From a virus (taxonomy: Duplodnaviria > Caudoviricetes), in IMG/VR virus record IMGVR_UViG_3300027007_000012, positions 24,657 to 88,656 of that record: a stretch of 64,000 nt of DNA; one strand, written 5' to 3'. A model generated the notes under the pieces. It worked only from the letters and a program-made list of their open reading frames with translations, did not search any database and was not told the origin of the DNA. The position numbers and the translations under genes are program-made. Every line of letters starts with the position of its first letter. The first letter of the stretch is position 1. Positions 5,677 to 61,574 of this stretch are shown piece by piece.

Positions 5677-5970
5677 ATGATTCGCATCGAGTACGATGAG
5701 GCGTACCCATTCCTGATGGGGTATCTCACACGTAGTTTCGAGAAAGAGATCGACGGACAGCGATGTGGCCCCGAGACGATCATGTCTGCGATGAACGCCG
5801 AGGGTCGCGAACTCATAATGACCGACCATCAGGCGAAGTGTGTGATAGCGTTGCTTGAAGACGGGTACGACGTCGAGGAGTTGGACAACACGAAGGAGGC
5901 GGTCGAGAAGTTAGAACAGTTGAAAGATGATCTGAACACCGCACTGGATGCCACCAGCAGCGGAGAGTAG
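5677..5970 (+). CDS. Hypothetical protein
   Basis: Acidic 97-aa ORF from ATG 5677; ends with a copy of the dispersed motif. Confidence 0.6.
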   Translation: MIRIEYDEAYPFLMGYLTRSFEKEIDGQRCGPETIMSAMNAEGRELIMTDHQAKCVIALLEDGYDVEELDNTKEAVEKLEQLKDDLNTALDATSSGE

Positions 5971-6784: not shown

Positions 6785-7170
6785 GCGTTTTTGAAACTTT
6801 TCTTGGGTTGAGTGGAAGAAATGTTGTGAAAGTTGAGTGAAAGCTGGGTTGCGTATATGTATGGAAGCTGTCTCGTTTTTCTGTACCTGTTCAGAAGGGG
6901 GTGAAATCGATAGACGGCGATGGGATTGGGATAGGATTGTTTTCGGGAAAAATCGAGAGATCCTCGTTTAGGGACAATGCTATTCGGGCAATACAGACCC
7001 CCTACCCCCCAAATTCGGGCACTTGGAAACCCCAAATATGGGCACTCTCAGGGCCTGTGAGGCCCGTCTACGGACTATCGAAGCTCCCTGAGTTGATTCT
7101 GTGGACTCATTTTTGGACGTTCGTCTATATATGTGGACACACGCTGGTGGTGGCATCGAGAGCTGCGAGG

Positions 7171-7373
7171 GCTATCTTTTTCGTGCTATCCCAGTCCGAC
7201 CGCGTGGGTTACCAAAAAACTGCTATCCCAGCCGCTTTCGCGCGCGGCCCGCCGGCTCACGGACTCACTCGCCGCTCGCTATCAAATCTGTGCTATCCTG
7301 CGCCGGGACCGTCGTGCGCTATCAAAAAATCGCTATCCCAGAGCTGCGTGGGTTATCTTTTTCGCGCTATCCT
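7171..7373. repeat. Iteron-like array of five bipartite GYTAYC-N8-GCTATCC units
   Basis: Units start at 7171, 7208, 7278, 7318 and 7352; N8 spacers are A- or T-rich; region lacks a credible ORF. Confidence 0.8.
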
Positions 7374-7536
7374 ATGCCTGGTTCGATCTCCAGTCGAAAC
7401 CGGGGGCCTCGTCGCTGCAACCCGGTGTGAAACCTGTCGTGAACTCGTGAAGCGATAACCATGCTACGGGAACGGTTTTACCAGCAGTTTTATCAGTATA
7501 ACATATATTTATTATCTTACGTGTCCTACATAGATT

Positions 7537-7908
7537 ATGGCACAAAAAGGCCACCCGACGGGACGCAGCTGGGACGAGCGGGTCCAGGAGCGACTGGAGA
7601 ACCTCGAGTACGTCGAGCACGTGCACCTGGATTCGGGCGAGCGCGACTACCTGGCGGGCCAGAGAGATGTCGACCGAGTGACGTGGCTGGTCAGGCTGGA
7701 TGAGGCGACGATTCAGCAGATCGAGTTCGTCGAGGCGGGAGACATCGATGGGAGCGAGACGTTGCGCGGGATTCGCAACGAGTTCGAGCTCGAGATGGGC
7801 CTCGCCCCCGGCGACTCGTGGATGGAGTGGGAGGAGATGCAGCGGGGGACGATCTACGTGACCGGCACGCACGACAACCGTCCGGGAGGGAGCGACGTCT
7901 TCCGCTGA
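7537..7908 (+). CDS. Hypothetical protein, first gene of cassette 1
   Basis: Leaderless start MAQKGHP directly after the conserved promoter; acidic 123 aa. Confidence 0.75.
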   Translation: MAQKGHPTGRSWDERVQERLENLEYVEHVHLDSGERDYLAGQRDVDRVTWLVRLDEATIQQIEFVEAGDIDGSETLRGIRNEFELEMGLAPGDSWMEWEEMQRGTIYVTGTHDNRPGGSDVFR

Positions 7909-7925
7909 GCGGCCGGTCGCGGCAA

Positions 7926-7968
7926 CCCGGCATGGTGCGTCGTGGGGGTTCGAGTCCCCCACCGGGCA
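7926..7968 (+). ncRNA. Mini-tRNA-like element 1 (acceptor-like stem plus T-arm)
   Basis: GTGGGGG-TTCGAGT-CCCCCAC (7942-7962) enclosed by CCCG/CGGG; no D or anticodon arm. Confidence 0.65.
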
Positions 7969-8013
7969 TGGGCCGAGAAAAGTCGGGACTGGCCCACCCG
8001 AACGGAGCAACCG

Positions 8014-9999
8014 ATGAGTGTAGACGACGCGCCCGCTGAGGAGCGGGCACTGATAGAGGAGCACCGCAACGAGATCGCCCGAACCGCCGTCGACGACGCG
8101 GTCGAACTGTACGACCTGGTCTCGCGTGTCGGGTTCATCGCCGAGGACGCCGCCGCCGAGCTCGAGTTCGTCGACGAGGACGAGGGGTCGCTGGCGGATG
8201 TCCGTCTGGCCCTGGACATGCTGGACGAGATGGACAACGCACTCGTGTACATGAACCGACAGAAGCGCCGCGTCGAGGGCCTGTTGGAGGAGCTGGCGCA
8301 CATCGAGGAGGACCTGTAGATGCCGTCGACATCGATCGAGGTGGCGGGTGACGTCGTCAAGGCCCGGTACTTCGGCGAGGCGGAGGGTGACTACGCGAAG
8401 CTGGTCGTCCACCGCGACCTGTTGGCGAACGAGGATGAGGCAACGCGCGTCCTCGACGAGATGCGCGACACGATCGCCCGGGAGGGCCGCTGATGCACGA
8501 CACGTGCCAGTGCGAGGAGTGCAAGCTGGAGCGCCAGCGCGAGTACGAGGCGTCGTACCCCGAGCAGGCGCGCCGGGACAAGCTGGAGTTGGGTGCCGAG
8601 GCGACGACCGAGTTCGCCCGAGAGGAGGCACTGCTGCTGAAGACTGGGATGACCGAGCGCGATGCGCGGGCCCGGGGGCTGATCGACTGATGACCGCGAT
8701 GGATGACCTGCGCGTCGAGCGTCAGCACTCGCGCTACGCGATCGCGCTGGAGAACGTCGAGGCACTCGCGCACGACGGCCTCGAACAGACCAGCGCGAAG
8801 GAGAAAGACGAGATCCTGCGCGAGATCGAGGCGGTCGCGACGGGGGCGTTCGAATGAGCGAAGTGTCGAAGAAACGCGCAGCTGCGATGTTGGAGTTGCT
8901 CGATAAGGACGAGACGATGAGCGAGGGACACGACGACTCGACCGACCCGGAGTGTTGGCGGGAGTCGTTCCTGGAGAGCGCGTTCGAGGAGGCGGTGTCG
9001 ATGGTGACCCAGGCGTCGATGGCCTACGACGAGGAGCACGGAGAGATGAACGACCAGCCGCACCCGATGGACGTCATCCGTGGGGAGAGCCTGTTGCGCG
9101 TCTACGCGACGAGTCGACCGTGGGCGGTCCCGGTCGTGGTGGTCGAGGTCGCAGAGGCGCCGGCGTACTTCGAGAACGGCATGCTGACCGATGTGCGGGA
9201 AGTGTACGCCCGGCGGAAGCCGGGGCTGTCGGCCGACCCGACGCACGTGAAGATCCAGATTCGCCAGGGGCGGTCCCGATGAGCGGCGCGACGCGACAAC
9301 CCTGTGACGTCCGGGATTCGGTGGCCGAGATGTCGACGGAGTCGCTGCTGTTCCAGACGGCGATGACCGACGCCTACGGGGGTGAGGTTGCCGACCTGAT
9401 CGACTGGGAGCTGGACAGAGAGATGCGACACGAGCTCGCCTCACGCGGGGTCGAATGGTAGTGTACGCGATGGTGACCCTGATCGTCTGGTTGGGTGGCC
9501 TGCTCGCGTGCTGGATGGTGTACAGAGCGGCGGTTGGAACGATAGACCACAGACAGTCATGAACAGAGACATGGAGGACGACAAATGGTGAACTGGGGCG
9601 GGCGGTACCCGCCAGGAGCAGCGAACGACCCGGCGGCACCGTACAACGAGCCGGAGATGCCCGAGCCCGGGACCGTGATTACGCACGACGTCTCGGAGGC
9701 GTACTGCGCGGACTGTGACGAGACGGTCGGGCCAAACAGCCCGGACGTCGTCGCGGACATCCTGCTGGACGAGCACCACGGACACCAGGTGGAGGTCGAG
9801 TCGTGGACGGAGGAGGAAGTCTGGGGAGGCGACGATGCCCGGTAGTCACGAGCGCCACCTGGACGAGTTCGGTATCTGTCAGTGTGGCCCGTCGCGATCG
9901 GGGACGGAGCCGATGGCGCTGGAGTACCAGGATGACATGACCGGGCGGTGGGTGACCGAGCAGGTGCCGGCCTGCGCCGACTGCTTCGGGCTCTTGTAG
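8014..9999 (+). CDS. Cluster of about 9 short translationally coupled hypothetical ORFs (8014-8319, 8320-8493, 8493-8690, 8690-8857, 8854-9282, 9279-9461, 9585-9845, 9835-9999); several CxxC microproteins
   Basis: Acidic ORFs with ATGA/TGATG stop-start overlaps. Confidence 0.7.
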
Positions 10000-10019
10000 C
10001 CCGGACGCCCTTTCCGCTT

Positions 10020-10330
10020 CTGCGCGCCGCCCGCGACGACCCTGGTTTCCGGTCCAGGCCGAAATAGTAGAGATTCTGATTATATGCAGAACCCGAGAGA
10101 TGAATACAACTCGCCTCAGCGGCACACACGAGGGTCTCCCGGCGACCAGTTTTCTGGGGTCTCACCCCCCACCCTCTCCATGTCGCAAACGACCGTCCAC
10201 GGGCCGCGTTCGCGGCGTCTACGCACGATTTTCGAAGTTCTCATTTTATGCCTTTTGCTCATCGGCGAACCCTGGTTTCTGCTCCGCGAGCCCCGGCACC
10301 GCATCCCGGCGCATGTAAGATAATAGAAAC
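10020..10330. repeat. About 300-bp non-coding spacer with diverged copies at about 19015-19330 and 21540-21840
   Basis: Shared ordered blocks ccctgNtttccggtcca, ctcagc, cggcgac, cccc-rich tract, ttYYgctcc and cccggc. Confidence 0.75.
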
Positions 10331-10401
10331 ATTTAATATCGTACCAGACCAAGTATACATTGGACATCGAGAAACCGATGGCCAGCTGGAGTGTCAAAGA
10401 A

Positions 10402-10860
10402 ATGGCGAAAACGACCAACGCGGCCGGCGCACAGCAGACGAGCATCGCGAGCGACGCGGACCTCGTCGACCCCACGCAGCACGTGGTGGGGTTTAACGAC
10501 AAGACGATGAAGCGCGCGAAGTGGGAGGAGTACGACTTCGTGGTCACGGACACCGGGAACGTGCAGGTCCGGAACGCTTCGTATGGGGACGACGCAGACG
10601 CGCACACGTACCACGTGGTGACCGACGCGTCTGGCATCCCGAAGTGGTGCCTGCACGCACTCGAGGACGACCACGAGGACGACTGGGCGCCATGCCCGGC
10701 GATGGCCTACCACGCAGCGAGGAAGAACAAGGAGACGGGCCTCGACACCGAGGAGCTGATCGCCAACGGCGAGTACCGTGTCTGCAAGCACGCCCTCGCG
10801 TACGCCCGGAACGAAGCGATCGTCCAGGCCGTCCGCCGGGTCAAGGGAGGCGACAACTGA
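10402..10860 (+). CDS. SWIM-type zinc-finger protein
   Basis: KRAKWEEYDF...NASYG...CPAMAYH...CKHA, similar to haloarchaeal SWIM proteins; SD-like GGAGTG upstream. Confidence 0.6.
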   Translation: MAKTTNAAGAQQTSIASDADLVDPTQHVVGFNDKTMKRAKWEEYDFVVTDTGNVQVRNASYGDDADAHTYHVVTDASGIPKWCLHALEDDHEDDWAPCPAMAYHAARKNKETGLDTEELIANGEYRVCKHALAYARNEAIVQAVRRVKGGDN

Positions 10861-11437
10861 TGAGCACCGTCGAGGTGCTGAACGACCACGGGACGGTCCA
10901 GTACCGCGAGCACGACCTCCAGGTCCGGCGCGTCGACGCGGCGTCGGCGGGCTACGACACCGGGTTCGAGAACGAGTTCGAGCTCCTGGTCGACGACGAG
11001 GTCGTCGCGACCGCGACCGAGATCGAGGCCGAGGGGTGGAAGAATCCGTGGGCCAAGTCACTGCGCCTGTATGGGAAGGCGTTCGTCGACGGGAGGCTGG
11101 ACGGATGAGCCGTTTCATCCAGGCCATGCGTGCAGAGTTCGGGCACGAGGATGCCCGGAGCAACGAGGACTACCGAGCGCCCGTCCGCAAGGTGTACTAC
11201 GAGGTCGACGGGACGCGACTCCGCGCCACGGTCGTCGGGGCCACCGACGAGGAGGCGCGACAGACGTTCGACGAGCTCGCGACCGCTGAGGGACTCGACA
11301 CCGCGGAGGTCACCGAGATCGTCCCGACCGACGCCCAGATCGCGGACCTGGACGACCGACTGTACAGTCACGTGCACCGCAAGGCGTCGCGCCGGGACCA
11401 CGGTGCGCTGAACGCCGCGTTCAACGGGGGCGAGTGA
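10860..11437 (+). CDS. Two hypothetical proteins (10860-11108, 11105-11437)
   Basis: Coupled acidic ORFs. Confidence 0.7.
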
Positions 11438-11904
11438 TGCGGGCGCGATCGCGGCGCTGGATGGTCGTCACGGACCCGGACACGGACTGCGAGTCGCCGG
11501 TGTTTCGCCGCATCCCGTCGAAGTTGGAGGCGCACAAGCTCGCACAGTTGACGGTGCGCGCCTACGACGATGGGACCAGCGCCGGCGTTGTGGAGGACCT
11601 CGGAAAATGACGGGGGACGTTCGCCGACGAGAGCACGTCTACGGGAGGGGGCGGCTCGTCGTCTACGAGGGGAACCCGAACACGTCGACAGCGTTCGTGG
11701 CCGGGAAGCCGGTCCCGAACGAACCCTGACAGTTTCTGTTTTTGCGCGCCGCCCGCGTCGTCGATTCACCCAGACCGCACTGGATGCCACCAGCAGCGGC
11801 TCTCGCCCCACATATGACAGATAATAGAAACATTTAATATCGTACCTGTCATAGTATAGTATAGGTTACTGAGGGAAACCTCGGTGCCCACCTGGAGTGA
11901 AAGA

Positions 11905-13569
11905 ATGACGACCAGCGACAGCAGTGGCAAGACGGAGTACAGCACGGGACAGATCGGCGTCGACGAGGAGCGTATCATCGACGAACTGATCTTCAGCCAG
12001 GCGGAGGGCATCGTCGACGGCATCCGCGAACTCGCCCAGAACGGGATCGATGCACCGAACTCGACGACAGTCGAGATCGATGTCGACCACGAGCAGACGA
12101 TCGTGATCGACGACGGCCAGGGGATGGACCTCAGCGACGAGGAGATTCGAGAGTTCCTGACGAACCTGGGACAGTCGACGAAGATAGACGACGAGGACAC
12201 GATCGGCCAGTTCGGCATCGGCTTCGGCCAGGCACTCGCCGTGGGCAAAGTGACTGTCCACAGCCAGGACTCGAAGGTCGAGTTCGACGCCAAGAACTGG
12301 TTCCGCGACTACCGCCTGTACGAGGCCGAGGAGACGTTCGATGGGACGAAAGTCACGATCGAGCACTACGAGGACGAGGTGCCGGCCGAGGGGTCGAGTG
12401 AGTGGTCGGACCACCTCGCGGACCTGCGCACCCGGTTCCAGTACATGGAGCTCGTGAAAGGCGTCGAGGTCTGGCTGAACGGCGAGCGCGTCTCGAACTA
12501 CGACCCGGCGGATGACCTGGAGAACGCCACGGTCTACGACTCGGAGCTGGCGTACATGGTCCTGAAGCACGAGAGTTACGACTGGCTCGAAGTGTACTCG
12601 GCGGGGCTGAAGGTCACGGACGTCAAGGGACACGGCCTTCGCGGGTACGTGATCACCAAGCGCAACCTGGAACTGAACACCGCCCGGAACAGTATTCGCT
12701 CCGGGTGCGAGGTGTGGCCGGAGGTCGAGAAGGAGATCGCCGATGCACGTGCCGAGATCCTCGCGGACGTCTCGGATTCGAACCTGTCGAACCCAGGCCG
12801 GGCCGCGATCATCCGCCTCGTGCGTGAGGGCCACGACGAGTTCAAGGACCGAGAGGTGCTGAAGATGGCCAACGGCGAGATGACGACGTTCGAACAGGTC
12901 GAGAAGCGGGATAGCATCATGTTCGCCGGCCAGACGGACAAGGCGGCGGGGAAGCTGGCCGACCTGGGCAAGATGGTTCTGATGCAGGGCGACAGCGCCG
13001 TCTCGCAACTCCGTGAGGGGGCGAAGCGGGGACAGCTGACGCTCCCGGAGACGAAGAACATCCAGGCGACGGCGGCCGCGCTCGGCATCAAGAACGGCTA
13101 CGAGATCCTCGAGTTGGACGAGTTCCCGAGCAAGCCCCTGGCACTCGCCCGCATCCTGCGGATCAAGATGGCGGCGTACAGCCCGTACGACCTGGACCGG
13201 GAGATCATCCCGGGAGAGGACAAGACGGCGCGGGCGTGGACGAAGCCCCGCCCGGACACGCTGAACGGCGACGAGCGCGCGGCCATCGCCGACTCAGAGT
13301 TCGACTCGTTCGTCGCGATCACCGAGACCGCCTACACGTCGTGGGCGAGTGAGATACTCGTCCTGGAGCTCTGGCGCATCATCGCGCACGAGTTCGCCCA
13401 CACGGAAGACTCGACGGGAGAGCCGTCCCACGGGTCTGGCTTCGCTCGCCGCTTCCGCAAGATCCTGGACGCGACCCAGCCAGCGGCCGTGGAACTGCTC
13501 GAGGAGATTCGGTCTGACGGCCTCGGGGCAACGTTCGAGCGATACGACCACGGGGTCCCGGACGTCTAA
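11905..13569 (+). CDS. GHKL (HSP90/MutL-like) ATPase with a C-terminal HExxH motif
   Basis: RELAQNGIDA, DDGQGM and IGQFGIGF Bergerat motifs; HEFAH near the C-terminus. Confidence 0.85.
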   Translation: MTTSDSSGKTEYSTGQIGVDEERIIDELIFSQAEGIVDGIRELAQNGIDAPNSTTVEIDVDHEQTIVIDDGQGMDLSDEEIREFLTNLGQSTKIDDEDTIGQFGIGFGQALAVGKVTVHSQDSKVEFDAKNWFRDYRLYEAEETFDGTKVTIEHYEDEVPAEGSSEWSDHLADLRTRFQYMELVKGVEVWLNGERVSNYDPADDLENATVYDSELAYMVLKHESYDWLEVYSAGLKVTDVKGHGLRGYVITKRNLELNTARNSIRSGCEVWPEVEKEIADARAEILADVSDSNLSNPGRAAIIRLVREGHDEFKDREVLKMANGEMTTFEQVEKRDSIMFAGQTDKAAGKLADLGKMVLMQGDSAVSQLREGAKRGQLTLPETKNIQATAAALGIKNGYEILELDEFPSKPLALARILRIKMAAYSPYDLDREIIPGEDKTARAWTKPRPDTLNGDERAAIADSEFDSFVAITETAYTSWASEILVLELWRIIAHEFAHTEDSTGEPSHGSGFARRFRKILDATQPAAVELLEEIRSDGLGATFERYDHGVPDV

Positions 13570-13594
13570 GCGGCCGGTCGCGGCAACCCGGAAC

Positions 13595-13641
13595 GGCGTC
13601 GGTTTTGGCGTGATGCTGCGGATCGAATCCGCTCGACGTCC
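13595..13641 (+). ncRNA. Mini-tRNA-like element 2
   Basis: GGCGTCGG (13595-13602) pairs with TCGACGTC (13633-13640); T-arm GCGG-ATCGAAT-CCGC. Confidence 0.55.
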
Positions 13642-13842
13642 TGGCGGCCTCCGCTACTGTCAAGTGGAGTGACCGCCTACTCCCGCCTGGATGGGTCGGT
13701 TCCGTCTGTGGTAGGCGGCTCGGCCCGTCCCACTCCAGGTGGCCACGGCGTTCGCGATCGGGCTGGCTCCCTCGGGAGTTAAGTGGTCGCGGCCGCGGGC
13801 ACCGAGCCCGTGTCACCTTTCGTACTGCTTCCCTGATACCCC

Positions 13843-13878
13843 GTATGTACGTACGTACGCGCCCATACGTACAGACGC
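13843..13878. repeat. RY-alternating element with TACGCGCC core
   Basis: gtatgtacgtacg-tacgcgcc-catacgtacagac; same core as 31014, 40525 and 63003. Confidence 0.85.
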
Positions 13879-13982
13879 GCATTCTCACCTTCCTTACCTG
13901 TCAGAGTTCAGTAACACTTATTATCGTACCCTGAGTAGGTCTATATGGACTTCGAGAAACCCGAAGGCCAGCTGGAGTGAAC

Positions 13983-15614
13983 ATGACAGATACAGCACGC
14001 CTTGTTGTCAACGGTTATGTAGAGCCACAAGAACGATCGGTCCGGATCGTGTCGATCCTGGGGAGTCTGGCGAACGTGCCGGACGGCCACCGCTTCGAGT
14101 ACCGCGGGATGGAGCTCGAAAAGCGCGTCACCACTGCACGAGCGCGGCGCGAACCCGAGCTCGCCGTGTACGACCCCGATGGCGAGTTCGTCGACCAGTT
14201 CCAGCCTCTGGAGCTCTCGTCGTACGGGATCGTGGAGATGCTCGATACCATGCGCGCCCACTGGGTCGAGACGAAGCGAGCGACCTCTCTGTGATCGAGG
14301 TCGTGATCGCGGTCGCGGTCATGGTCGCTGGCCTGGCATTGTTCTACGCCATGGTCGCGTACTTCGACTTGTGACCGAAAACTGGTATTTACCGGGTGGG
14401 CCCTACCGTGACATGGAGTACCAGAGATGCCCCGATTGATCGAGCGCATGGGTTGCGTTGCCGACCGACTGAGTGACGAGTGGGAACTCGACGACATCGT
14501 AATCGAGCAGTCGGCGACAGCCACGGCGCTCTATCGCCACGAGTCCGGGGCGATCGTCATGTGGTCGGCCGACCCGGGGCATCGCGTTCAGCTGTGGGAG
14601 CCAGACGGCGCGATGGAGACCTGGTTGGACGACGACGTGGTCGACCTGGATTGCGCGGCCGAGACGGTCCAGACGTGCATCGAGATGGTCGAATACGAGA
14701 CCAGCACATCGATGCCACCAGCAACGTCGGCGCCACGTCCGTAACCGTTTTTCCGCGCCGCCCGCGCCGGTCCTGTCACATCGATTGACCACCTGTACCA
14801 TGCTACGTTTCTCGATTACCAGCAAACCCCTCAGATATACATACATTAATATCTGTACCACGCATAGGTACATATAGGTCAAAAAACTGGCCTATCCGAA
14901 CGGAGACTGAGAAAGATGAGATACAGAGTCTACGGCACACGCAGTGGCACCGATTTCCAGGCACCCGTCTACGCGCGGACCGCGTCTGACGCGATCGACC
15001 TGTTCCTCGACTCCGTGGGCGACCACGCGGCCGAGTACGACAACGTCCGAGCCGAGGTCTGGGGTTGACGATGGAGAAGCTGTCGAATGTGGTCCGCATC
15101 GAAGACCACGAAGTGGTCGTCAACCGACTGTACCTGGCCACGCTGGTCGACGACGTCCAGTACCGACTGAGCGCCCTGGGAGACGAAGACGTCGGTGACT
15201 ACGAGGGAGAGTTGCACGAGGCGCTGTTCCACGCCCAGGAGGCGCTCGATGACTGACGACGACGACCGACTCCCGCCGGACGCGGTCCCGGACCCGTCGG
15301 TTTGGATGCCCCCGGACGTGGTGGTCAGCAAGGAGACCGCCGAGGTCGCGCTGCGCGAGCTCGACATCCTGATTGAGCACACGGGCGGCCCGGACACGGC
15401 GGTCGAGGACTGCTGCTCGCCGCTGGCGCTCGCGTACGACCGGGTCGAGAGACTGGAGGGCGAGGGGATCGACCCGTTCACCGTGGGGACGGTCCTGCAA
15501 GTGTTGGTCGGTGTCGGTGAGGAACGAGGCGTCGACCTGTCGGGGGAGGACCCGTTACAGGACGACGTGTTCCAGGCGAGGAGCGAGTTCAGGGACGCAC
15601 TCGGCGTCGAGTAG
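13983..15614 (+). CDS. Small hypothetical ORFs of cassettes 4-5 (13983-14294, 14427-14744, 14916-15068, 15071-15256, 15249-15614)
   Basis: Acidic coupled ORFs downstream of the conserved promoters. Confidence 0.7.
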
Positions 15615-15631
15615 TCGCCCCTCGCGGTTTT

Positions 15632-15680
15632 GCATCGCTGCTGGTGGCATTCCGAGCTCGGTTCGATTCCGAGGCGATGT
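15632..15680 (+). ncRNA. Mini-tRNA-like element 3 (contains a near-copy of the dispersed motif)
   Basis: CATCGC (15633-15638) pairs with GCGATG (15674-15679); T-arm CTCGG-TTCGATT-CCGAG. Confidence 0.7.
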
Positions 15681-16026
15681 GTGGCTCCCTGGCCGGAGAC
15701 GATACGTTGATAGGCTGGTGGAGCCTATGTCTGCACGACATCCCATAGTGGATGTCGTTCCGTTCGGGTGGGATAGCACGCGTCGGGCTGTCTCGGCAAG
15801 GGCAACCACGCAAGTCGAGATCAGAGGCTCGTGCATACCCGTTGTCCGGGGCTTTGTCCCCGGACGCCCTTTGTGACCCTGAGCGCCAGCTCTCAGTTTT
15901 CGCGTATCCTGTCAGTATCCTGCGGGGCCGGTCGCGCTAACCCGGTACCCATGCTACGGTCCACAACTATCAACAATATTAGTTGTCATAAATATTATTA
16001 TATCCCTACCCTGAGTAGTATAGAAT

Positions 16027-17363
16027 ATGGGAAAATCAAAATCCCACTCGAGCGGTGAGCGCGTGAACAAGCGGCGGTACCGCGGGAGCGAGCAGACCGA
16101 GAGCTTCGACCTGCAAGCAGAGCTCGCCAAACTCGGCGGCGACGAGGAGGACGAGGACGATGAGTGAGCGAGCGTACCGAGAGCCGGCCAAGTTCTCGGC
16201 CGACGAGCTGTCAATCGGCGATGAGATCGTGGTCGCCGGCCTCGTCCACGAGGTCCTGTCCGTGGGCGAGCCCGGGAAGCAGTGCCTGGTCCGCACGGAC
16301 CGAGGGGCGTTCTCGAAGGACGGTCTGAGCAGTGGCATCGACGACGGCTCCGTGGAGGTCCTTGGGGGAGGCGACGATGGGCGCTGACTTCGGTCCTGTC
16401 AACGTGCGCTGGGAGGGGCCGAACGGGGACGTCCGCAACCGGGAGTTCGCACAGCACGGTCTGTCGACCGGGTGGATCGTCGGCTACGATGAGGACGACA
16501 ATGCCGAGCGGAAGATACCGCGGAACCGGGTCTACGAAGTGGAGGTGCTCTGAGATGAGCGAGAGGGTCGACGAGATCAAGCGCCGGATCACGGGTGTGG
16601 ACCTCGTCGAGATCTGGGTGAGTGAGGGCGACCGACTGTTACTCGGCATCCAGCCCTACGCCGACGCCGACGGGGAGGCTGTCGCGCACTACCTGGAGCG
16701 ACTGTTCGACGCACGCATCGAGCGGGTCACGTACGACTTCGTCCTCGCCGAGGTGGCCCGATGAACTTCGACGAGATGAGTCCGGCCGAGATCGACGACC
16801 TGTTCCAGGTCGAACCGCAGCACGACCCCGAGTTCCAGATGGAGCGAATGCGCGAGCAACTGGAGTACGCTGGCTGGGACGCGATCGAGGGGCTCGTCGA
16901 CCCCGGGGACGAGTACGTCGTCGAGGAGTCGCACCTGCTGACGCCCGACCCGCTCGACTACACCGACTTCGAGTGGACGCTCGTCTACCGCGAGAAGCAC
17001 GTCTTCGACGTCATCGACCCGTTCGACAGCACGCGAGGGGTGATCCCCGCCAGTCGGGATGGCGAGGACATGATGCAAGCGTTCGGGGAGTTCGCCGAGG
17101 CGTTCCACCTCGAGTGCGAGATCGACAAGTTCCACGATGAGCTCGGAGAGATGGAGCCCGGGGAAGTCGTCCTGCTCCCGAGCGGCAAGCTCCGCATGGA
17201 CACGAGCGACCGGATCGTCGTCTACAACCCGATGTACGAGCCGGTCGTGACGACCGACCCGGAGAACGTCACGGTCGAACTGGTCGAGAGTATCATCGAC
17301 GACTGGCGGGCTGAGATGCGCGAGAAGTACGAGGGGACGCCGATGGAAGACCAGTTCGACTGA
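16027..17363 (+). CDS. Cassette 6 ORFs (16027-16167, 16160-16387, 16377-16553, 16555-16764, 16761-17363), hypothetical
   Basis: Leaderless MGKSKSH start; coupled acidic ORFs. Confidence 0.7.
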
Positions 17364-17431
17364 CCGCGCCCGTTTTCGCGCACCGCCCGCGGCGAATGAG
17401 TTATCGACATCGAGATAGTATCGAGTAGCAG

Positions 17432-17938
17432 ATGGGATCGCGACCGTGGGAGAACCCCGTCACACTCGCCCGGGCCTACGCCAAGCATGGCTCGGCCGAA
17501 GGCGTCGCCGACGCGTGGGGGTGTTCCGAACGCACGATCAGGACCTGGCTGCACGAGCACGACGAGATCCGCGTCCAGCGCCAGGGTCGCCGGCCCTCGT
17601 GGGAAGACGACGACCCGGCGAATCACGTCCTGGAGGACGACGAGGGCTACGAGATCGTCGAATCGTTCGTCCCGGTCCGCGATGAGTCAGGCGAGCTCGT
17701 CACGATCGAGCGCAAGACCGTTCGTATCCACCGTCTCGTCTGCGTGGCCGAGTGGGGCTTCGACCAGGTGGTCGACCAGGAGGTGCACCACATGGACGGG
17801 CACAAGGTGCACAACACGCGGGAGAACCTGATCCCGTTAGACCCGAAGACGCACGGGTTTATGGACCCGGCGCGGCGCTGGCGGATGCCCTGGGTCGGCG
17901 ATTACGAACTGGGCGATCCTGGCCCTGCTGGCGACTGA
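17432..17938 (+). CDS. HNH endonuclease with N-terminal HTH
   Basis: RIHRLV...VHHMDGHKVHNTRENL HNH motif; N-terminal AEGVADAWGCSERTIRTWL helix-turn-helix. Confidence 0.85.
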   Translation: MGSRPWENPVTLARAYAKHGSAEGVADAWGCSERTIRTWLHEHDEIRVQRQGRRPSWEDDDPANHVLEDDEGYEIVESFVPVRDESGELVTIERKTVRIHRLVCVAEWGFDQVVDQEVHHMDGHKVHNTRENLIPLDPKTHGFMDPARRWRMPWVGDYELGDPGPAGD

Positions 17939-17960
17939 CCCGTGGGCTTTTGCTTTCGAC

Positions 17961-18055
17961 GTATCCCCGCTCGCTTTCTGTCGGCGGGTATCCCTGCTCG
18001 TTTTCGGCGGTTGCGTATCCCTGCTCGCTTTCTGACACCGCGTATCCCTGCGGGC
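17961..18055. repeat. Tandem 27-bp repeat, four copies
   Basis: GTATCCC(C/T)GC at 17961, 17988, 18015 and 18042 (exact 27-bp period). Confidence 0.9.
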
Positions 18056-18189
18056 CCCGGCACCGCTTCCCGGTGACCAGACCATGCGATGCTCGGAAAC
18101 TCACAGCAGTCCAAGCCGCTTCGCGAGTCTCTAATACCCTACCCTGAGTAGCATAGAATGAGGAACAAAAATTCCTCACCCGAACGACC

Positions 18190-18429
18190 ATGAACGCAAT
18201 GGAAGACGTAGAAGGACTCCGTTACACCTTCTGCAACGTGTGGCTGGAATCGAACTCTCAAATCTCGCACATAATGGTGAACAAAGGTGGTGAAGATGTG
18301 TGGGAGGAGACGCCAGAGACAATACTCGTCAACAATTCGATATTCGAAGGCGAGTGCTACTTCCGAGATGTGATGAAGGTGGTGCTCGAACCACGAGAAG
18401 ACGAGATCAACGTCAAGATCAACCCCTGA
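18190..18429 (+). CDS. Hypothetical protein (cassette 7)
   Basis: 79 aa, preceded by an 11-codon leader ORF that overlaps its start. Confidence 0.65.
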   Translation: MNAMEDVEGLRYTFCNVWLESNSQISHIMVNKGGEDVWEETPETILVNNSIFEGECYFRDVMKVVLEPREDEINVKINP

Positions 18430-19361
18430 CGGCAACGAGATGGGGCTCCCCATGTGAGCTCCCGTTTTTGCGCGACGCCCGCCGCCCACGACTATCCCAG
18501 ACCATGCGATGATCTTCGATTCCCAGCAGTTCCAGCCGTCTTACGCGTCTTTATATCACTACCCTGAGTAGTACAGAATGGGAACAAAAATCCCAACCCG
18601 AACGATGAGCTACGCAACCCACGTTCAGATTCAGAAGCTGAAGCGAGCGAGAAACGAGAGTCGCTGGCCCTCGGACGAGAGAGAAGACGACGAGTAGAGC
18701 CGACGCCGACTCTTTCCATTTTCGAGCGCCGCCCGGCGTGACCCACCGGCGTTCCCGATGTGAACGTTTCCAGACAATATCAGCCGCTAAACGTGTCTTT
18801 AATACCCTACCAGTGGTAGTATAAGATATGGGACAAAAAATCCCAACCCAGCGGAACTGAGTGTAGAGAGTGTGCGAATAGAGGGAGAGAGTGGAGAAAA
18901 GACACTACGAGTGCACAGTGTGCGTATAATAGAGGGAGAGCTCATCGTGAGAGCCTACGAAGATTTCCCACTTCACTCTGACATCTGAGTGAGTGGGAGA
19001 GCGGTCCACCGTTTTTGCGTGCGGCCCGTCGGCCTCGAACCCTGATTTCCGGTCCACGAGATGATTTTGCTTCCTTGCAGCACCTGAGAGGCGAATACAA
19101 CCCGTCTCAGCGAGGATCTCGAGCGCCTCACGGCGACACGTTTTCTGAGCTACAACCCCCTCCCTGTGGACGGTGCAAACGACTGTAATCGACTGTCAGC
19201 AGCGAGCTCACACGTGCATATTCGAGTGCCTCAGTGTATGTAGAATAACGTATACGACGAACCCCTGTTTCTGCTCCACGCGGGCCCGCTCGCAGCATCC
19301 CGGCACCGTCTCTCTTGCCGCTTCGCTGATATTTATTACCCTACCCTGAGTAGCTATAGAT

Positions 19362-19739
19362 ATGGGACAAAAAAATCCCAACCCGAACGACGAGAGCGAC
19401 GAAATCCTCCCGGCCCTCGACCACCGAGGACTGACGGGACACGGCAAGAAACGACTCGACGAGAGCGAGCTCGTCACCCCGTACCTCGTGCAGACGCTCC
19501 AGGACGCTGACCCGACCATCCTCCGAGCCATCTGTCAGGTGGCCGATGCAGCAGCGTCGGCACGGTACGCACCGATCCAGAACCAGCTGGCCAAGGACGA
19601 GAGTGCCAGCCGAGAGATTCAGCAGGAATACTGGAACCAGCTGGACGACGTGAAGGGGCTCTCGCTCCTCTGCACGGAACTCCTGCGAGACCAGAGAGAC
19701 GGCGTCCCAACCGAGGAGGACCCCCGACTCGGCTTCTGA
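19362..19739 (+). CDS. Hypothetical protein (cassette 10)
   Basis: Leaderless MGQKNPNP start encoded by the conserved hairpin. Confidence 0.75.
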   Translation: MGQKNPNPNDESDEILPALDHRGLTGHGKKRLDESELVTPYLVQTLQDADPTILRAICQVADAAASARYAPIQNQLAKDESASREIQQEYWNQLDDVKGLSLLCTELLRDQRDGVPTEEDPRLGF

Positions 19740-20091
19740 ACACGGGAACCGACCCAGGGCTACCGATTTCGCGCCACGCCCGTCGTGAAAACCACCGCAC
19801 CGATGCCACCAGCAGCGCCGGCCCCGGCGTGAATCGTGCACATCGCGACCAGTGTGCCTCGACGAGCGGCGACCAGGTTTCGCGAGTGGAACCCCTACCC
19901 CGTAGACGCCGCCAACGAACCTCCGAGAGCTGGGCCAGATCGCCGTCGTGAAGGGCCGTCGTATCAGGTGTGAATACTTGCGGGCCCCGGCACTGAATCC
20001 AGGGACACAGCGGCTATGCGATGCTCTGGAACTACCAGAGTTATCAGCCGTTTTACATACCTTAAATACCTCACCCTGAGTAGCTAAGAAT

Positions 20092-20370
20092 ATGGGAAAA
20101 CAAAATCCCATCCGAACCGGCGAGCAGTGCGGCAAACACGACGTCGTGGCCTTCGTGGCCCTCGCTGCGGACCCCTCGTGGGTCGATGCACCGACGAACC
20201 CGGTCACGCCGGGTAACGGCACCGAGGACTGGGCCGCCGACATCGAGGGCGCCGACGGGGGCGTGATCATGAGCGACTGGTCTTCGCTGGCGGGTGCGGG
20301 CGCGATCGACCCCCTGTCGGGACGAGAGCTGAGCGATGAGGAGCTGCGAGAGAGGCTGGGGGTCGAGTGA
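20092..20370 (+). CDS. Hypothetical protein (cassette 11)
   Basis: Leaderless MGKQNP start. Confidence 0.7.
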   Translation: MGKQNPIRTGEQCGKHDVVAFVALAADPSWVDAPTNPVTPGNGTEDWAADIEGADGGVIMSDWSSLAGAGAIDPLSGRELSDEELRERLGVE

Positions 20371-20562
20371 GATGCTGAGCCCCAACGGCGATACGGCGCG
20401 GATCGATGCGCACGAGTGCGAGCTCGAGCCGACCGGCCGCGGAGAGGGGATGCACGAGGAGTTCGAGTGCCGAGTCTGTGGGACGGTCACGACGCCCGCT
20501 GTGGGCGTCCGGCGAGCGAAGCGGCAACGGCTCTGGTGAGGGCCAGCCCCTCGTTTTCGAGT

Positions 20563-20598
20563 GCGTGTACGTACGTACGAGCGGGTACGCACAGACGG
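20563..20598. repeat. Degenerate RY-alternating element
   Basis: gcgtgtacgtacg-tacgagcg-ggtacgcacagac. Confidence 0.6.
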
Positions 20599-20775
20599 GT
20601 GGTGGGACCATAGCTTCCGCTTCTGCGCGCCGCCCGCGACGGCCACCGTCCCCGACAGCCAACGTAGCATCTATGCGCGCTACTCGACAGAGAAACTTAA
20701 ATTCGGGCTCCTCTGGGCTTCTACGCAAGTTTTACAACCGAAGTCTTTATATCTGATACCTGAGAAGTCTTAGAT

Positions 20776-22962
20776 ATGGGACAAAAAATCCCAACCCCCG
20801 AACGGAGCGAGAGCGAGACGAGAGCAGCAGAGGAGGGACGATGATGCGCCCCGAGTCGCCGATTGAGTGGACTGGCGAGGCCCACCTCGTCACGGTGAGC
20901 TGTAGCCGCTGCGGGAGCACGATGAGCGTCGACGAAGATACGGCGCTCTGGTACGACGAGCAGGGACGCGAGCACGTGTGCGAGGAGTGTGAGTGAGATG
21001 CGCCGAGTGCGTACGATGCTGCTGGCCGCGAGAGTCGTCGCTGGGATCGTCGTGTTCCCGATCGCGCTGACCGCCGCGAGAGCTCGGGCCCGGGTGGTCT
21101 GATGAGCTGTCTCGATTGCGGGTCGACGTCGCTGGCGAGCGAACGAGTGGACGTGGTCGGGCGCCCCGACGAGCGGGTGACGTACTGCGAGAACTGTGGA
21201 GAGGTGCAGTACGTGGATGTGATTCGATGATTACGCTGCTGGTGGCATTGGTGGTTGCCGGGCTGGGCGTGTGGGCGTTCCTGCTGATCGCGAGGGAGCT
21301 GTAGCGATGGACTGGTGCCCGGAGTGCGGGTCGATGGCCCGCGTCGACGAACGACGGTTGGAGCGCCAGGACGACAGCGCGCTCGCCAAGGAGGTGCTCG
21401 ACGTCGTCTGCATGCAGTGTGAGTACGAGGGCGAGAAGCGTCGCACAGTGCCCGCCGTGTTCGAGCGGCGGCCAGCAGAGACGGGGCGGGGCGTGAGCGA
21501 GCGCGAGCCGGGTCACCCGCTCGACCGCTGAGCGCCCCGGTTTCGCGTTCCGCCCGCGCCGACCCCTGTTTCCGGTCCACGAGCAAATAGAGTTCGCGAC
21601 GCGTGTGCATACGCTCGTCTCAGCACGATCCCCCAGGGCCTCACGGCGACGGGCTCCTCGGGCCATCACCCCTCCCCTGTGGATGTTGCTCACGACTGAC
21701 TGGGAGCACACGAACGCACGCCTCAGCGCCTCTACGCGCACTTTCTGTCTGGGGATTTATCATTGGCTTCGACCTTGATTTCCGCTCCACGCGGCCGGAC
21801 GCGGCAACCCGGCACCAGAAGTATCAGCCGCTTTACATGACTATATACCTGTACCATGAGTAGCTAAGAATATGGGAAAACAAAATCCCACCCGACCGGA
21901 ACTGGCCGAGAAGCGACGCAAGCTCGTCAGCGAGCTCCCGTTCACGAGCCCCGCCGAGAGCGGCAATCGGATCGTCGTGTGCGTGCAGGACCGCAAGCTG
22001 TCGAAGTTCGAGCGCGTCGTCGCGGACCTGGACCTGGAGATCGTCGAGCGAGAAGACGCTGGGCACTCGATGCAGGGCCGACGCCAGCGCATGGTCCTGG
22101 AGGCGTCGTAGCATGCGCCGATCGACGCCGGCGGACCTGGAGCAGCGCCTCGCCGCGATCGAAGCAGAGCTGCGAGCGATGAGTCGCGGAGACGTCGACG
22201 CGGGAACGTGCCGGTGGCTGCTGGAGGAGAAGGCCGAGCTCAGAGACGAGCGCGACCGGCTGCACGAGACGAGTGGGCGGTGGGCCTGATGAGCGACGAG
22301 GGATTTCTCCCGCCAGCGCCGACGGGCGGCCACCCAGCAGACGCCGTCGAGCGAGCGCGAGAGATCGTCCAGGGAGCACCGGCGACAGAAGAAGAAGTGG
22401 CGTGGGCGGCGGAGGTCCTCGCAGACGTCGAGTAGGGTCTCCGGTTTCGCGCCGCGTCCCCGCCGTCCCCGTCAGTTTTCAGGCCGATTTCAGGCCGATT
22501 TTCGCAGAAACCCTCGAAATCGAGTGCCTCAGAGCCTCTACGGGCCAAAGTCTTTATATTCGCTTATGTCAAAGATTTAAATGGTATGGCAAAAAACCAA
22601 ACCACCCGACGGGAAGCAGAGCAGGAGAACGAGAGCGACTGGTGGAGCGAGTATCTGCGAGAGCTCGACGAGATCGTTGTGGGAGTGCTCCCAGCCGAGT
22701 CAGATGCGGCACGCCGGCTCGCAGCAGACGAGTACCCGACGTGGAGCCAGCGATGAGTGACGAGACCGGAGAGGCGTGTGCGAGGGGAGTCGAGAGTGCG
22801 AGCAGTGAGCGAGAGCGTGTGCTGGTGAGAGACGTGACCGCCGTCGCGCAAGACCTGGAGACTATGTCGGACCACGATCACTTGAGAAGCAGCCGCATGC
22901 TCGAGAAGACGGCGCGAGAGATCGTCGACGCAGTGCACGTGTACGCAGACGACGACGCGTAG
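20776..22962 (+). CDS. Microprotein ORFs of cassettes 12-14, including CPxCG-type zinc fingers, a short membrane peptide, 21872-22111 and 22586-22756
   Basis: MDWCPECG and MSCLDCG-type starts; leaderless MGQKIP, MGKQNP and MAKNQ starts. Confidence 0.6.
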
Positions 22963-23686
22963 GGAGAGGGGTTGCCGATTTTTTTGGTGCTGTCCGTGAG
23001 CGCCGGAAACGCGCGCCGCCCGTCGCCCGTCTTTCGTGTGTGCAACCGCATGGCTGGGTGAGAGAGCGAGCAGGAGATGAGCAGGAGCGTGTGCAGTAGA
23101 GCCCCCCGCTCGCGGGCCCCACCAAGAGCTGGTGCGCGGCCGGGACCCATTTAGACCTACTTTTACCGCGACACTGATTTTCAGGGATGGGACCGAAACG
23201 AATCACTATACTATCTCACATCAATCCAGTCTTTGTCTTCAAACTCGGTGGCACAGATGTTACACAAATCGATGTCAACTTCTTTCGTTGTCCCGTCCTG
23301 GCGGTCAATCTCAAGGTGATGTTCAGATCCAGTCCTATCGTTACAAACTGAGCACTCCATTTTTAGAAAGATTACAGGTGAACCGTTTTAGTCGTATTCC
23401 CCCTGATCAGTGTCCCACTAAGGTGTTTTCGTGGTGTTGATTCGATTTGATCTACTTTTTACGGGCACCCTGTTTTCAAGCAGTCGCCTCTGGTGGCATC
23501 CAGTGCGGTGACATGAACCAGGTCCATTGACCCTAATGTACCCTTATTTCGAAGCATAACGAAAATTATATATCCGTTCCCTGACTATCTCCATATGTCC
23601 TCCTTGGAACGGAGTGACGCATTGCATGAAGCGAACGAACGACCGGCCTGGAGACCCGGTCACGACCCCGAGAAGCACCGCTTCGG

Positions 23687-26600: not shown

Positions 26601-27431
26601 GCGATGGACGCGTACTTCGTCTTCCGTGAGTCGAGCCACAAGTGCTCGGACCGGATGGCGAACGCGCTGTACTACGGCCTGAAGATAGCGAACCACGAGC
26701 GGTCGGACGTGGTGGAGGTCGACGTCCAATACTGGGACAAGGGATGGCGAACCTGGCTCCTGAAGACAGCCAACATGCGACCGCACTACGCATCGGACCC
26801 TGAGCAAATCAAGAACCTGGAGGAGCTGACTGACCTGCTGGAGAACATCTGATGTCGGTCCAGGAGACGGGGACGTGTCCTTACTGTGACATCAACCTTA
26901 AACGGACGGGGACGGCCTTCGGAGAGTTCGACTCGGCGGTGCTGTTCACGTTCGAGGGCCACATCGTCTTCGAATGCCCGGACGTACCCCCAGAGGCACG
27001 GGCATACTTCGATGAGGGAAACAGTCATACCTCTCAGAAGTGAAATGTCAAGTATGAGTTTCGAGAAGTACAAGGGGTCGAGCCGTGGTCGGAAAACGAT
27101 CAGTCACCCAAGTGTTAAAATCTGGTCGTCCGGGAAGATCGCCTTCAACGACATGGCGATGGACGAGTGGCTCGACGGCGCTGAGTACGTCGCGATATTC
27201 ACCCACAGCGATCTCCCCCAGGTGGGGATCGGACCTGAGACGAAGTCCAACTCTGGTCTCCCTCACGTATACGCGCTCCACACACAGGGGACGTATCAGG
27301 GAAAGCTTCTCCAGGTCAAGAAGTTGCTTCGCGATCTCGACTGTGTTCGACCGGACGAATCCCTCGAGCTCGACGCCTGGTACGACGACGATCAGGAGCT
27401 AACGGTCGTCGACCTGTCCCCGCTGACGTAA
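23687..27431 (+). CDS. Operon of about 13 small hypothetical proteins (e.g. 23687-24016 Zn finger, 24009-24311, 24311-24559, 24602-24784, 25319-25528, 25521-25733, 25726-26100, 26093-26518, 26511-26852, 26852-27043, 27045-27431)
   Basis: Continuous ATGA-coupled acidic ORFs; the first start codon is uncertain. Confidence 0.7.
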
Positions 27432-28562: not shown

Positions 28563-28844
28563 GTGAGCAGTAAACGCGCCGGTCTGTCTCCGAAACAGCT
28601 CGGGGCACTCACCAGAGGGGGACTCGTCGAGGTCGACGACGGGACGCGTCGCTCGGTCGAGCTCTATTGTGAACAGGATGATGCCGAGGTGTGGTCTCGG
28701 ATTGCCACCACAGACGGTGGCGAGGAGTTGACGGTCCTTTCGTTCCCGGAGGATGTCTGGGAAGACGTTCTCGACGTACTGGGCGTCGAGGATGGCCGAG
28801 ACAAGATCAAGGTCGGGTCGATGGTGTGGGTACAGCGCGGCTGA
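28563..28844 (+). CDS. Hypothetical protein
   Basis: GTG start; flanked by convergent copies of the dispersed motif at 28538 (+) and 28850 (-). Confidence 0.6.
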   Translation: MSSKRAGLSPKQLGALTRGGLVEVDDGTRRSVELYCEQDDAEVWSRIATTDGGEELTVLSFPEDVWEDVLDVLGVEDGRDKIKVGSMVWVQRG

Positions 28845-40560: not shown

Positions 40561-41061
40561 AAGGGTAGAGGTTCTGAAAGACATTAGGTAGGGAATCTTT
40601 CATGGTGACCCCCGGCGACCCCCTTTCCAGACCCCAACCCCCACCCTGTAGGCCCTGTAAACGCCTCTCCGGGCACTTCGGACCCGATTAGTTTCAAATC
40701 GACACTCTCAGACTCTCTATACGTGGTATACGGCATAGCTGAGCGACATTCCAGTCCTTCAGAACAGTTTCCTCTCCGCTAACCTCTCATGTCCGATAGC
40801 GCGTCATAATATTCCTGACACCCCCACGCTCTCGATGCCACCAGCAGCGGTTTCGACGATTCATGAAAGGCACGTAGAAACGGTTTAGGTGGAATCGATA
40901 GACTGGTCTTCATTAAACTAATGAATGAGTCTCGATAGAACAGAAATCTTTAATATCATATCCCACATATTTCTACTTACCCACAGCTACCCAGTGGGAC
41001 GCACTCCAGGAGTGCGTGGAACGGAGACATACATGAGAAAATTGCGACAGAAGTGGGGGCA

Positions 41062-51161: not shown

Positions 51162-51293
51162 AAGGAATAGAGTTGCCAAGCTACTGTCTTGCGATTTCAA
51201 TAGGTAAGAAAACAGAAACTTATTTTACCTACTACTGCATACTATAGATTACCCACCCGGCACCAGGCCAGGTGGTGTGGAACGGAGTTACTA

Positions 51294-57289: not shown

Positions 57290-57384
57290 AACCGCTATAC
57301 ACGGCAACGTATACACTTATAACCGTCCAACGGCTATTACTTAATTACCCACTCCTGGAACGGAGTGTATCAGCATTAAGTAAT

Positions 57385-61455: not shown

Positions 61456-61574
61456 TCCGGTAGAACCACCGTTTTCCCGTCAGTTTGAAACCGCATGAGT
61501 GGAATCTACCTGCGTATGAAAACACTCTTAATATGATAGTACCAAGAATGTGATAACGCCTCCCCAGGTGTCAC

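Follow-up and report, generated by a model that had tools for sequence, protein, structure and literature searches.

The viral record IMGVR_UViG_3300027007_000012 of IMG/VR is a linear, uncultivated halovirus of 88.6 kb, with an estimated completeness of 72%. We analyzed a window of 64,000 nucleotides (bases 24657 to 88656 of the record, G+C content of ca. 60%), whose early region, from 7.4 to 23.7 kb, is made of short open reading frames (ORFs) on the + strand interrupted by AT-rich islands. Along this region and on the same strand there are ca. 15 repeated archaeal promoters, and just past them lie the small hairpins with A-rich loops that are the subject of this work. Judging from predicted starts, they seem to stand at the front of almost all transcripts of this archaeal virus from a salt lake. 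The repeat families D2, D3, D5, and D12 correspond to the promoter sequence itself, an intergenic AT-rich stretch with a BRE (the element that transcription factor B recognizes) and a TATA box that stands in fixed orientation before gene blocks. A terminator-like T-run family (..CCGTTTTTGCGCGCCGCCCGC) ends each early unit directly upstream of the next promoter (10002-10034, 11724-11756, 14733-14765, 17358-17390, 18450-18482, 18704-18736, and 20605-20637), so that the early region can be described as a series of promoter-hairpin-genes-terminator cassettes.

The order within a unit is BRE/TATA, ca. 22 nt, TA(T)GG, the first stem arm, the A-rich loop, the second stem arm, and a box, either (A)CCCGAnCGGAG or GCCAnCTGGAGTGA depending on the class. 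The transcript is predicted to begin with A(U)GG ca. 30 nt past the TATA box, and the hairpin starts ca. 31 to 33 nt past it. We collected 53 elements in six sequences by anchoring on the TATA box and the initiator, the start being inferred rather than mapped, and relative to this start 51 of the 53 fold with 0 to 2 unpaired 5' nucleotides. Stems have 4 to 10 bp and loops 4 to 9 nt, with a loop composition of 77% A and 0% U over 330 nt. A full GGAG is found in the downstream box of 26 of 51 elements (16% by chance). A second mini-hairpin, CCG..CGG, was considered within this box and discarded, its pairing being inconsistent among copies. In 38 of the 53 elements an AUG stands at the predicted +1 position, with its U and G paired, and 13 elements (the leadered class) have no AUG in the hairpin.

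The most frequent version, TGGGA..TCCCA, has seven copies in the whole 88.6-kb record (16028, 18579, 18829, 19363, 20093, 20777, and 21873), all of them in the window, on the + strand and ca. 30 nt past a TATA box. Folding z-scores against dinucleotide shuffles range from -1.4 to -5.2 for 12 of the 14 window copies, the other two being those at 22586 (3 bp, z of -0.3) and 7537 (4 bp, z of -1.0). Under loose rules, a stem of at least 5 bp is found at 42% of random positions versus 26 of 31 promoters (binomial p of 2e-6), and the mere presence of some hairpin at promoters is thus a weak test by itself; the decisive evidence is the fixed position together with covariation. As for position, a hidden Markov model (HMM) of the promoter was made from the 42 nt upstream of the predicted start and carries no hairpin information. 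At E<0.05 it detected 24 promoters in three genomes, all 24 followed by a hairpin, and at E<20 the hairpin followed ca. 45 of 49 matches. The offset of the hairpin start is nearly fixed, at 4 to 6 nt past the end of the HMM.

Relatives were found through the HATPase_c_3 gene (11905-13569), which sits between two cassettes. They are the viral contig IMGVR_UViG_3300027007_000025 (G001 hereafter, HATPase protein identity of 79%), the 148.9-kb circular replicon NZ_CP058532.1 ("plasmid unnamed3" of Halobaculum halophilum Gai3-2, identity of 65%), and three metagenome fragments (L028, 65%; L025 and L026, 38%). All of them have the same architecture with differing stems, which include GGC/GCC, GGCA/UGCC, GGGG/CCCC, GGAAG/CUUCC, GGAAU/AUUCC, and GGAAC/GUUCC as well as GGUC/GACC, GAGGA/UCCUC, CACCGGU/ACCGGUG, CCUGGG/CUCAGG, CUCAG/CUGAG, and GGGUC/GACCC. 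Pattern scans yielded little more: the promoter DNA pattern recovered from IMG/VR only the known relative and three AT-rich chance matches, and the hairpin pattern one contig 100% identical to G001 plus one unrelated match. The plasmid carries orthologous HATPase, polB, helicase, and HNH genes in addition to the early-region architecture, and resembles a replicon derived from a virus, or a plasmid-prophage, residing in a cultured host. The PLSDB database lists on it a "cmlA5 phenicol efflux pump, identity 100%" at 27200-27325, which is a 126-nt hypothetical ORF; this resistance call is almost certainly spurious.

Altogether, there are 33 distinct stems among 51 elements. A covariance model seeded from seven equal-length copies gave 35 matches in the three genomes, none of them on the other strand or outside the early regions. 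In the resulting alignment 99.4% of the cells form standard pairs, against 87.0% after shuffling and at most 66% when the partners are slid, and changes on both sides occur in four of the five pairs. There are 17 double-change cells against 1.7 expected, a number reached in 0 of 500 shuffles. Among copies of the AUG class the outer TGG..CCA hardly varies. Since this alignment is fitted to its own model, a second, gapless one was made from six leadered-class copies anchored solely on their 4-nt loop; here 92.9% of the cells pair (63% shuffled, at most 43% slid), with double changes in six of seven pairs. Aligning the raw copies with MAFFT and folding them with RNAalifold was unsuited because stem and loop lengths differ. 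The third comparison is between orthologs, defined by reciprocal best matches of the downstream protein, where CAUCG/CGAUG is replaced by CACCG/CGGUG, CUUCG/CGAAG by CCUCG/CGAGG, and UGGGA/UCCCA by UGGC/GCCA or UGGAAU/AUUCCA, and where a GAAA loop is invariant in five orthologs with differing stems. By all three measures structure rather than sequence is conserved, which bears out the proposal, made in an earlier note on this DNA, of an RNA-level signal maintained by compensatory changes.

Coming to the individual copies, all of them on the + strand, the one at 7538..7553 pairs UGGC with GCCA around the loop ACAAAAAG. Its AUG at 7537, preceded by a TATA box at ca. 7508-7514, opens a 123-codon ORF, and the G001 ortholog keeps UGGC/GCCA with another loop. 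The copy at 10362..10383 is leadered (GG-A-CAUCG/CGAUG-G-CC, loop AGAAAC, z of -2.9) and is followed by the Shine-Dalgarno (SD)-like GCCAGCTGGAGTG and the ATG at 10402; its orthologs have CACCGGU/ACCGGUG, CACCG/CGGUG, and CUCAG/CUGAG. Also leadered is the copy at 11864..11889 (ACUGAGG/CCUCGGU including two U.G pairs, loop GAAA, z of -3.9), after which come CCCACCTGGAGTGA and the HATPase_c_3 start codon, ATG. It has five orthologs with different stems, down to 42 to 44% protein identity over the first ca. 190 residues, and over the full gene the HATPase orthologs keep a hairpin with other stems down to 38% identity. At 13946..13970 (UGG-A-CUUCG/CGAAG-G-CCA, z of -2.7) the AUG at 13945 opens an 11-codon upstream ORF (uORF) that ends in a GGAGTGA box, with 3 nt left to the main ATG (13983); in G001 the stem is CCUCG/CGAGG, a U:A pair having become C:G. 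Four copies of the leadered type retain an A.G mismatch where the outer GG:CC pairs meet the inner stem (10362-10383, 13946-13970, G001 37341, and 76161 in the plasmid), which may be a conserved noncanonical pair. The hairpin at 14876..14893 (AGGUCA/UGGCCU with a U.G pair, z of -2.5) has no AUG and is followed by CCGAACGGAG and the ATG at 14916, with GGCCAG/CUGGCC in G001 and GGUCAG/CUGGCC in the plasmid.

Further along, UGGGA/UCCCA at 16028..16046 encloses the loop AAAUCAAAA, with an AUG at 16027 that opens a 46-codon ORF and orthologous stems UGGC/GCCA (G001) and AUGGG/CCCAU (plasmid). Next comes UGAGGAA/UUCCUCA at 18159..18178 (z of -5.2; UGAGGA/UCCUCA in the plasmid), whose AUG at 18158 opens an 11-codon uORF with its stop overlapping the main ATG (ATGA). 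UGGGA/UCCCA recurs at 18579..18595 with the loop ACAAAAA, read as MGTKIPT, and before the same MSYATH gene the stem of G001 is UGGGG/CCCCA. It recurs again at 18829..18845, where there is only a 10-codon ORF followed by ca. 150 nt of purine-rich sequence devoid of ORFs. This stretch (18828-19010) contains repeated GAGAGAGTG-like words and then a T-run, and the product of the cassette may be a small noncoding RNA. The same stem is found at 19363..19380 (loop CAAAAAAA), the AUG at 19362 opening a 125-codon ORF whose G001 ortholog (84% identity over 125 amino acids) has UGGG/CCCA. At 20092..20111 it is extended to AUGGGA/UCCCAU (z of -2.5) and the AUG opens a 92-codon ORF. The copy at 20777..20793 (UGGGA/UCCCA, then CCCCCGAACGGAG) begins at 20776 a 22-codon uORF with a stop that overlaps, again as ATGA, the main ATG at 20841, and its orthologs have UGGAAU/AUUCCA and UGGAA/UUCCA. 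Another UGGGA/UCCCA, at 21873..21890, has an AUG at 21872 that opens a 79-codon ORF. The degenerate copy at 22587..22599 (UGG/CCA) retains the promoter and the CCCGACGG box, and its G001 ortholog has UGGAAU/AUUCCA. Finally, a promoter-proximal hairpin at 23597..23618, GUCCUCC/GGAG-U-GAC, encloses a GGAG and is retained in G001.

The stems listed in the earlier note were all found where it had placed them (its TGGC/GCCA at 7538-7553), those at 11868 and 14874 containing U.G pairs, and its limits of 7537 to 22610 proved too narrow: more copies occur at 23597-23618, at 7966-8010, and at late promoters near 40980, 51253, 57350, and 61550. The late-type promoters, nonhomologous to the early ones, also have a hairpin from ca. 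+2 to +4 on, and for two of them the stem differs between the relatives and this virus. The first, with a transcript predicted to start ACCCAC.., has CCCAC/GUGGG from ca. +2 (40980..40998, +). At 51253..51275 (+), CCACC..GGUGG precedes GGAACGGAG and the ATG at 51294; a C.A mismatch here corresponds to G.U in G001, and the plasmid has CACUCAG/CUGGGUG. The hairpin before the ribonucleotide reductase gene, CACUCC/GGAGUG at 57350..57367 (+), is conserved in sequence in all three genomes, and GUGAUA/UGUCAC at 61550..61574 (+), which ends at the ATG at 61575, has GAUA/UAUC in the plasmid. The copy at 7966..8010 (+) is internal to an operon: UGGGCC../..GGCCCA and CCCGAACGGAG precede the ATG at 8015 without a TATA box, and the covariance model matches it with an E value of 0.64. 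It adjoins a tRNA-like T-arm element, GGGGGTTCGAGTCCCCC, in an arrangement (7905-8014) retained in G001, where the T-arm covaries (GGTGGTTCGAGTCCACC). The two together may form an RNase P/Z-type processing site that makes a new hairpin-protected 5' end.

An inverted repeat that overlaps the start site could also act as DNA, either as the operator of a dimeric regulator, since archaeal repressors often bind there, or as a repeat kept complementary by a DNA mechanism such as templated repair, with no function in the RNA. The near-invariance of the outer TGG..CCA in the AUG class would suit such an element, and the antisense strand folds overall at least as well; however, the invariance is accounted for by the AUG plus pairing, stems of 4 to 5 bp are too short for cruciforms, and 33 different stems with arms spaced by 4 to 9 nt, together with the unrelated arms of leadered and late copies, could not be read by one protein. 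Besides, the minimum free energy helices contain eight sense-strand G.U pairs against a single C.A mismatch, a modest hint in favor of the sense strand; a symmetric scan of G.U versus A.C was confounded by mis-registered stems. We therefore regard a DNA-level element as very unlikely, and consider it highly probable that selection maintains the hairpin as a structure of the sense-strand RNA.

What is conserved might alternatively be the encoded peptide. Of the 38 AUGs, 31 open at least 38 codons and seven open uORFs of 10 to 22 codons that stop at or beside the main ATG, and in the NCBI annotation of the plasmid many coding sequences begin exactly at the hairpin AUG, so that these AUGs are real starts in most cases. 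This agrees with what is known in Haloferax volcanii, where 72% of mRNAs are leaderless and mostly begin on the AUG (PMC4983044). Many early ORFs do start with MG(Q/K)K.., as the earlier note had pointed out when proposing a shared N-terminal tag of the type MG(Q/K)(K/Q)NP on early proteins. There is not one such N-terminus, though, and instead three "dialects" (MGQKSHP, MGQKIPT, and MGKQNPT): with loops of 6, 7, or 8 nt, the conserved 3' arm and its flank fall in all three frames, and the same nucleotides are read SHP, IPT, or NP(T/N) in 16, 13, and 9 elements, respectively. Moreover, changes in the stem give proteins starting with MA, ME, MV, MR, or MD, the uORFs would carry the tag on very short peptides, and the same hairpin is present on transcripts without a 5' AUG. 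The shared N-termini are hence a by-product, the conserved entity is a nucleotide structure and no peptide, and a peptide tag can be considered exceedingly improbable.

A role in translation deserves more consideration. The stem could hide the 5'-terminal AUG, or drive the tiny coupled leaderless uORFs, and in this way set or switch initiation, being opened for example by salt, temperature, or a factor. The paired AUG at +1 in most elements and the seven uORFs ending at or beside a main ATG speak for it, and so does the fact that stems with a real start codon are significantly weaker: the median hairpin energy is -4.9 kcal/mol for stems enclosing a real start codon (n=31), -7.4 for those enclosing the start of a uORF (n=7), and -10.0 for the leadered class (n=13; p of 6e-7 versus the real-start class). 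Yet the 13 leadered elements and the late promoters have no AUG in the hairpin and leave the SD box and the start codon uncovered, and the presence of the hairpin in these classes implies that the function common to all is not translational masking. The weaker stems equally fit a cost that has to be limited, and the three energy classes fit a benefit independent of translation together with a cost to leaderless initiation. We consider translation control rather unlikely.

Occurring with or without a 5' AUG, with a 3' arm read in three frames, and at nonhomologous late promoters, the hairpin is independent of both coding and promoter class. The function that we favor, tentatively and by analogy with bacterial systems, is that of a stabilizer of the mRNA 5' end. 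The hairpin would be encoded as a transcribed part of the repeated promoter cassettes, and the host RNA polymerase would start on the A in TA(T)GG, ca. 30 nt past the TATA box. The first 18 to 26 nt of the transcript would then fold into the stem-loop, leaving 0 to 2 nt unpaired at the predicted 5' end, with selection acting on shape rather than on sequence. Such a structure would protect the messenger from decay or processing that depends on the 5' end, possibly assisted by the downstream GGAG box as a ribosome-binding "STAB-SD," and where it encloses a leaderless start codon the stem would be kept short and weak, so that initiation remains possible. Of the four functions put forward in the earlier note, the peptide tag fails as described; among the other three (protection from a 5' exonuclease, a boxB-like antitermination site, and a translation switch), which sequence alone leaves unseparated, 5' protection fits best because promoter classes that are unrelated all place the hairpin 0 to 2 nt from the predicted 5' end, both with and without a start codon in it.

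Stem-loops of this kind stabilize several bacterial and phage mRNAs, such as those of the Escherichia coli ompA 5' untranslated region, the Bacillus subtilis aprE leader, phage SP82, and the cryIIIA STAB-SD type, and their defining property is to begin at the extreme 5' end. The halovirus hairpins resemble them in standing a few nucleotides from the 5' end (as predicted here), in the conservation of shape over sequence, in the SD-like box that often follows, and in their occurrence in phage early transcripts. They differ in that the host here is archaeal, and in that most copies enclose the start codon of a leaderless mRNA, for which we know of no bacterial counterpart. Within archaea, the bacterio-opsin (bop) mRNA of Halobacterium is a possible parallel and a lead only: this nearly leaderless haloarchaeal messenger has been proposed to form a 5' stem-loop from its first codons, with an SD-like stretch within the coding region, but it represents one cellular gene instead of a covarying family. 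In kind, then, this is an already known structure, the 5'-terminal mRNA stem-loop; what is new is its presence in an archaeal virus lineage and the enclosed leaderless start codons, and such a feature is undescribed before for archaeal viruses.

Several points weigh against a stabilizer, or against the RNA evidence on which it builds. The ribonuclease aRNase J, which H. volcanii possesses and which is conserved among the Euryarchaea, counts as background in its favor. When purified, however, the H. volcanii enzyme behaved as an endonuclease, and the complex that it forms with RecJ3/4 works mostly in the 3'-5' direction (PMC10470531), so that 5'-3' exonucleolytic decay in haloarchaea is not established. 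Starts derived from TATA spacing may be off by ca. 2 nt. Protection of the 5' end leaves unexplained both the U-free, A-rich loops and the CCCGAnCGGA box. Many copies are paralogous or orthologous, and the p-values consequently overstate their independence; the G.U count of 8:1 is small and partly shared by descent. Folding of whole segments averages -8.7 kcal/mol for the antisense and -7.2 kcal/mol for the sense strand, a difference that is explained by the G/U-rich antisense strand and makes this measure uninformative on the strand.

The hairpin could instead be the docking site of a viral or host RNA-binding factor that reads the A-rich loop and the CCCGAnCGGA box, in the form of a boxB/nut-like or put-like antitermination signal or as a mark separating viral from host mRNAs. 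Loop composition is tightly constrained, down to the GAAA that is invariant in five orthologs, the box past the stem is conserved and single stranded, and early units end in conserved T-run terminators, which makes a control of termination conceivable. In lambda nut sites, boxB has a conserved sequence recognized by the N protein, and a 5'-terminal position is not required. The halovirus hairpins share with boxB and with HK022 put their small size, the promoter-proximal location in phage early transcripts, and the purine-rich (GAAA-like) loop beside a conserved linear box; unlike in nut, their stems vary freely and their position is fixed at the predicted 5' end, a strictness unexpected for a nut-type site. 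Loop length and sequence differ between classes, every unit has its own promoter, which makes read-through unnecessary, and a Pfam search of ten early proteins detected no N-like or RNA-binding domain, most of them lacking any Pfam match. A docking site thus seems unlikely. It is likewise unlikely that hairpin and box make up a virus-specific mRNA badge, read by a viral or host factor for selective translation of structured leaderless messengers or for sparing them from an RNA-degrading host shut-off. The variant of this badge in which the A-rich loop pairs with a 3' oligo-U tail derived from the T-run terminators, circularizing the mRNA and hiding both ends, is equally speculative. Operon-specific pairing of a loop with its own terminator was rejected (4.36 nt for the own terminator versus 4.49 when permuted), and the generic complementarity of A-runs and U-runs remains.

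The nearest halovirus precedent for repeated promoter cassettes is found in the intergenic repeats of HF2, classes I and II (Russ, Pfeiffer and Dyall-Smith 2021, PMC8707807). These are also intergenic BRE/TATA cassettes of a haloarchaeal tailed virus, conserved in its relatives and with a similar TCTTTAA-type TATA box. There is, however, no sequence similarity, and neither the alpha, beta, and gamma motifs of class I, whose repeats end in GTCTATTAGAGTGAGGAG, nor the class II consensus are found here. We discarded the class I repeats as the same element, as six downstream regions have no common 5' hairpin. The HF2 paper itself goes no further than one inverted repeat of 9 bp, in IR4.5, and puts forward binding sites for proteins rather than an RNA structure (PMC8707807). 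The promoter-early stem-loop (PeSL) cassettes of T4-type phages have a stem-loop between or over the -35 and -10 boxes that terminates upstream transcription (Arbiol et al. 2010, PMC2839356). In both systems, many repeated cassettes of promoter and stem-loop flank small orphan genes within the early or hyperplastic part of the genome, and may serve as substrates of modular shuffling. In the halovirus, by contrast, the stem-loop lies past the predicted start, has an A-rich loop, and is not followed by a T-run, and separate T-run terminators precede the promoters.

As for the rest of the window, it encodes a SNF2/PLD helicase at its left end, a DpdA homolog, and a large terminase (31076-33835) and a ribonucleotide reductase (57385-61455) that each contain an intein with a LAGLIDADG endonuclease domain. 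There are no tRNA genes in it, and a cmscan search of the whole window on both strands gave no Rfam match at the gathering score. The window has neither a nucleotide nor a close protein match in the phage collection, where the terminase has distant bacterial-phage matches only. Other repeats are present too. Two noncoding sets of iteron-like short direct repeats are located at 17945-18060 and 7170-7370, one consisting of four ca. 27-nt copies that begin GTATCCCTGCTCGCTTTC and the other of repeated GCTATCC/GCTATCAAA words. A dispersed, oriented motif with the core GATGCCACCAGCAGCGG is found at 5938-5963, 11774-11799, 23677-23702, and other positions, with reverse copies at 28836, 32107, 37083, 38315, and 60960, and a palindromic TGTACGTACGTACGCGCCCATACGTACA family likewise recurs genome-wide (families D8 to D10 and D16, together with the former).

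Haloarchaea translate most of their genes from leaderless mRNAs, whose protection, decay, and selection by ribosomes are poorly understood. With the hairpins, nature provides a family of over 50 members in which selection keeps a stable structure around the 5'-terminal AUG, counter to the simple expectation of a free leaderless start codon. Wild-type, disrupted, and compensated sequence sets are ready for tests of 5'-end decay and leaderless initiation in Haloferax, and, with one of the relatives residing on a plasmid of the cultured Halobaculum halophilum Gai3-2, the start sites are directly mappable. The grammar of promoter and 5' untranslated region is now defined for an uncultivated halovirus lineage, allowing better calling of gene starts there. 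Should the badge or the circle be true, the hairpin would be the first archaeal cis-acting RNA element known to distinguish viral from host mRNAs.

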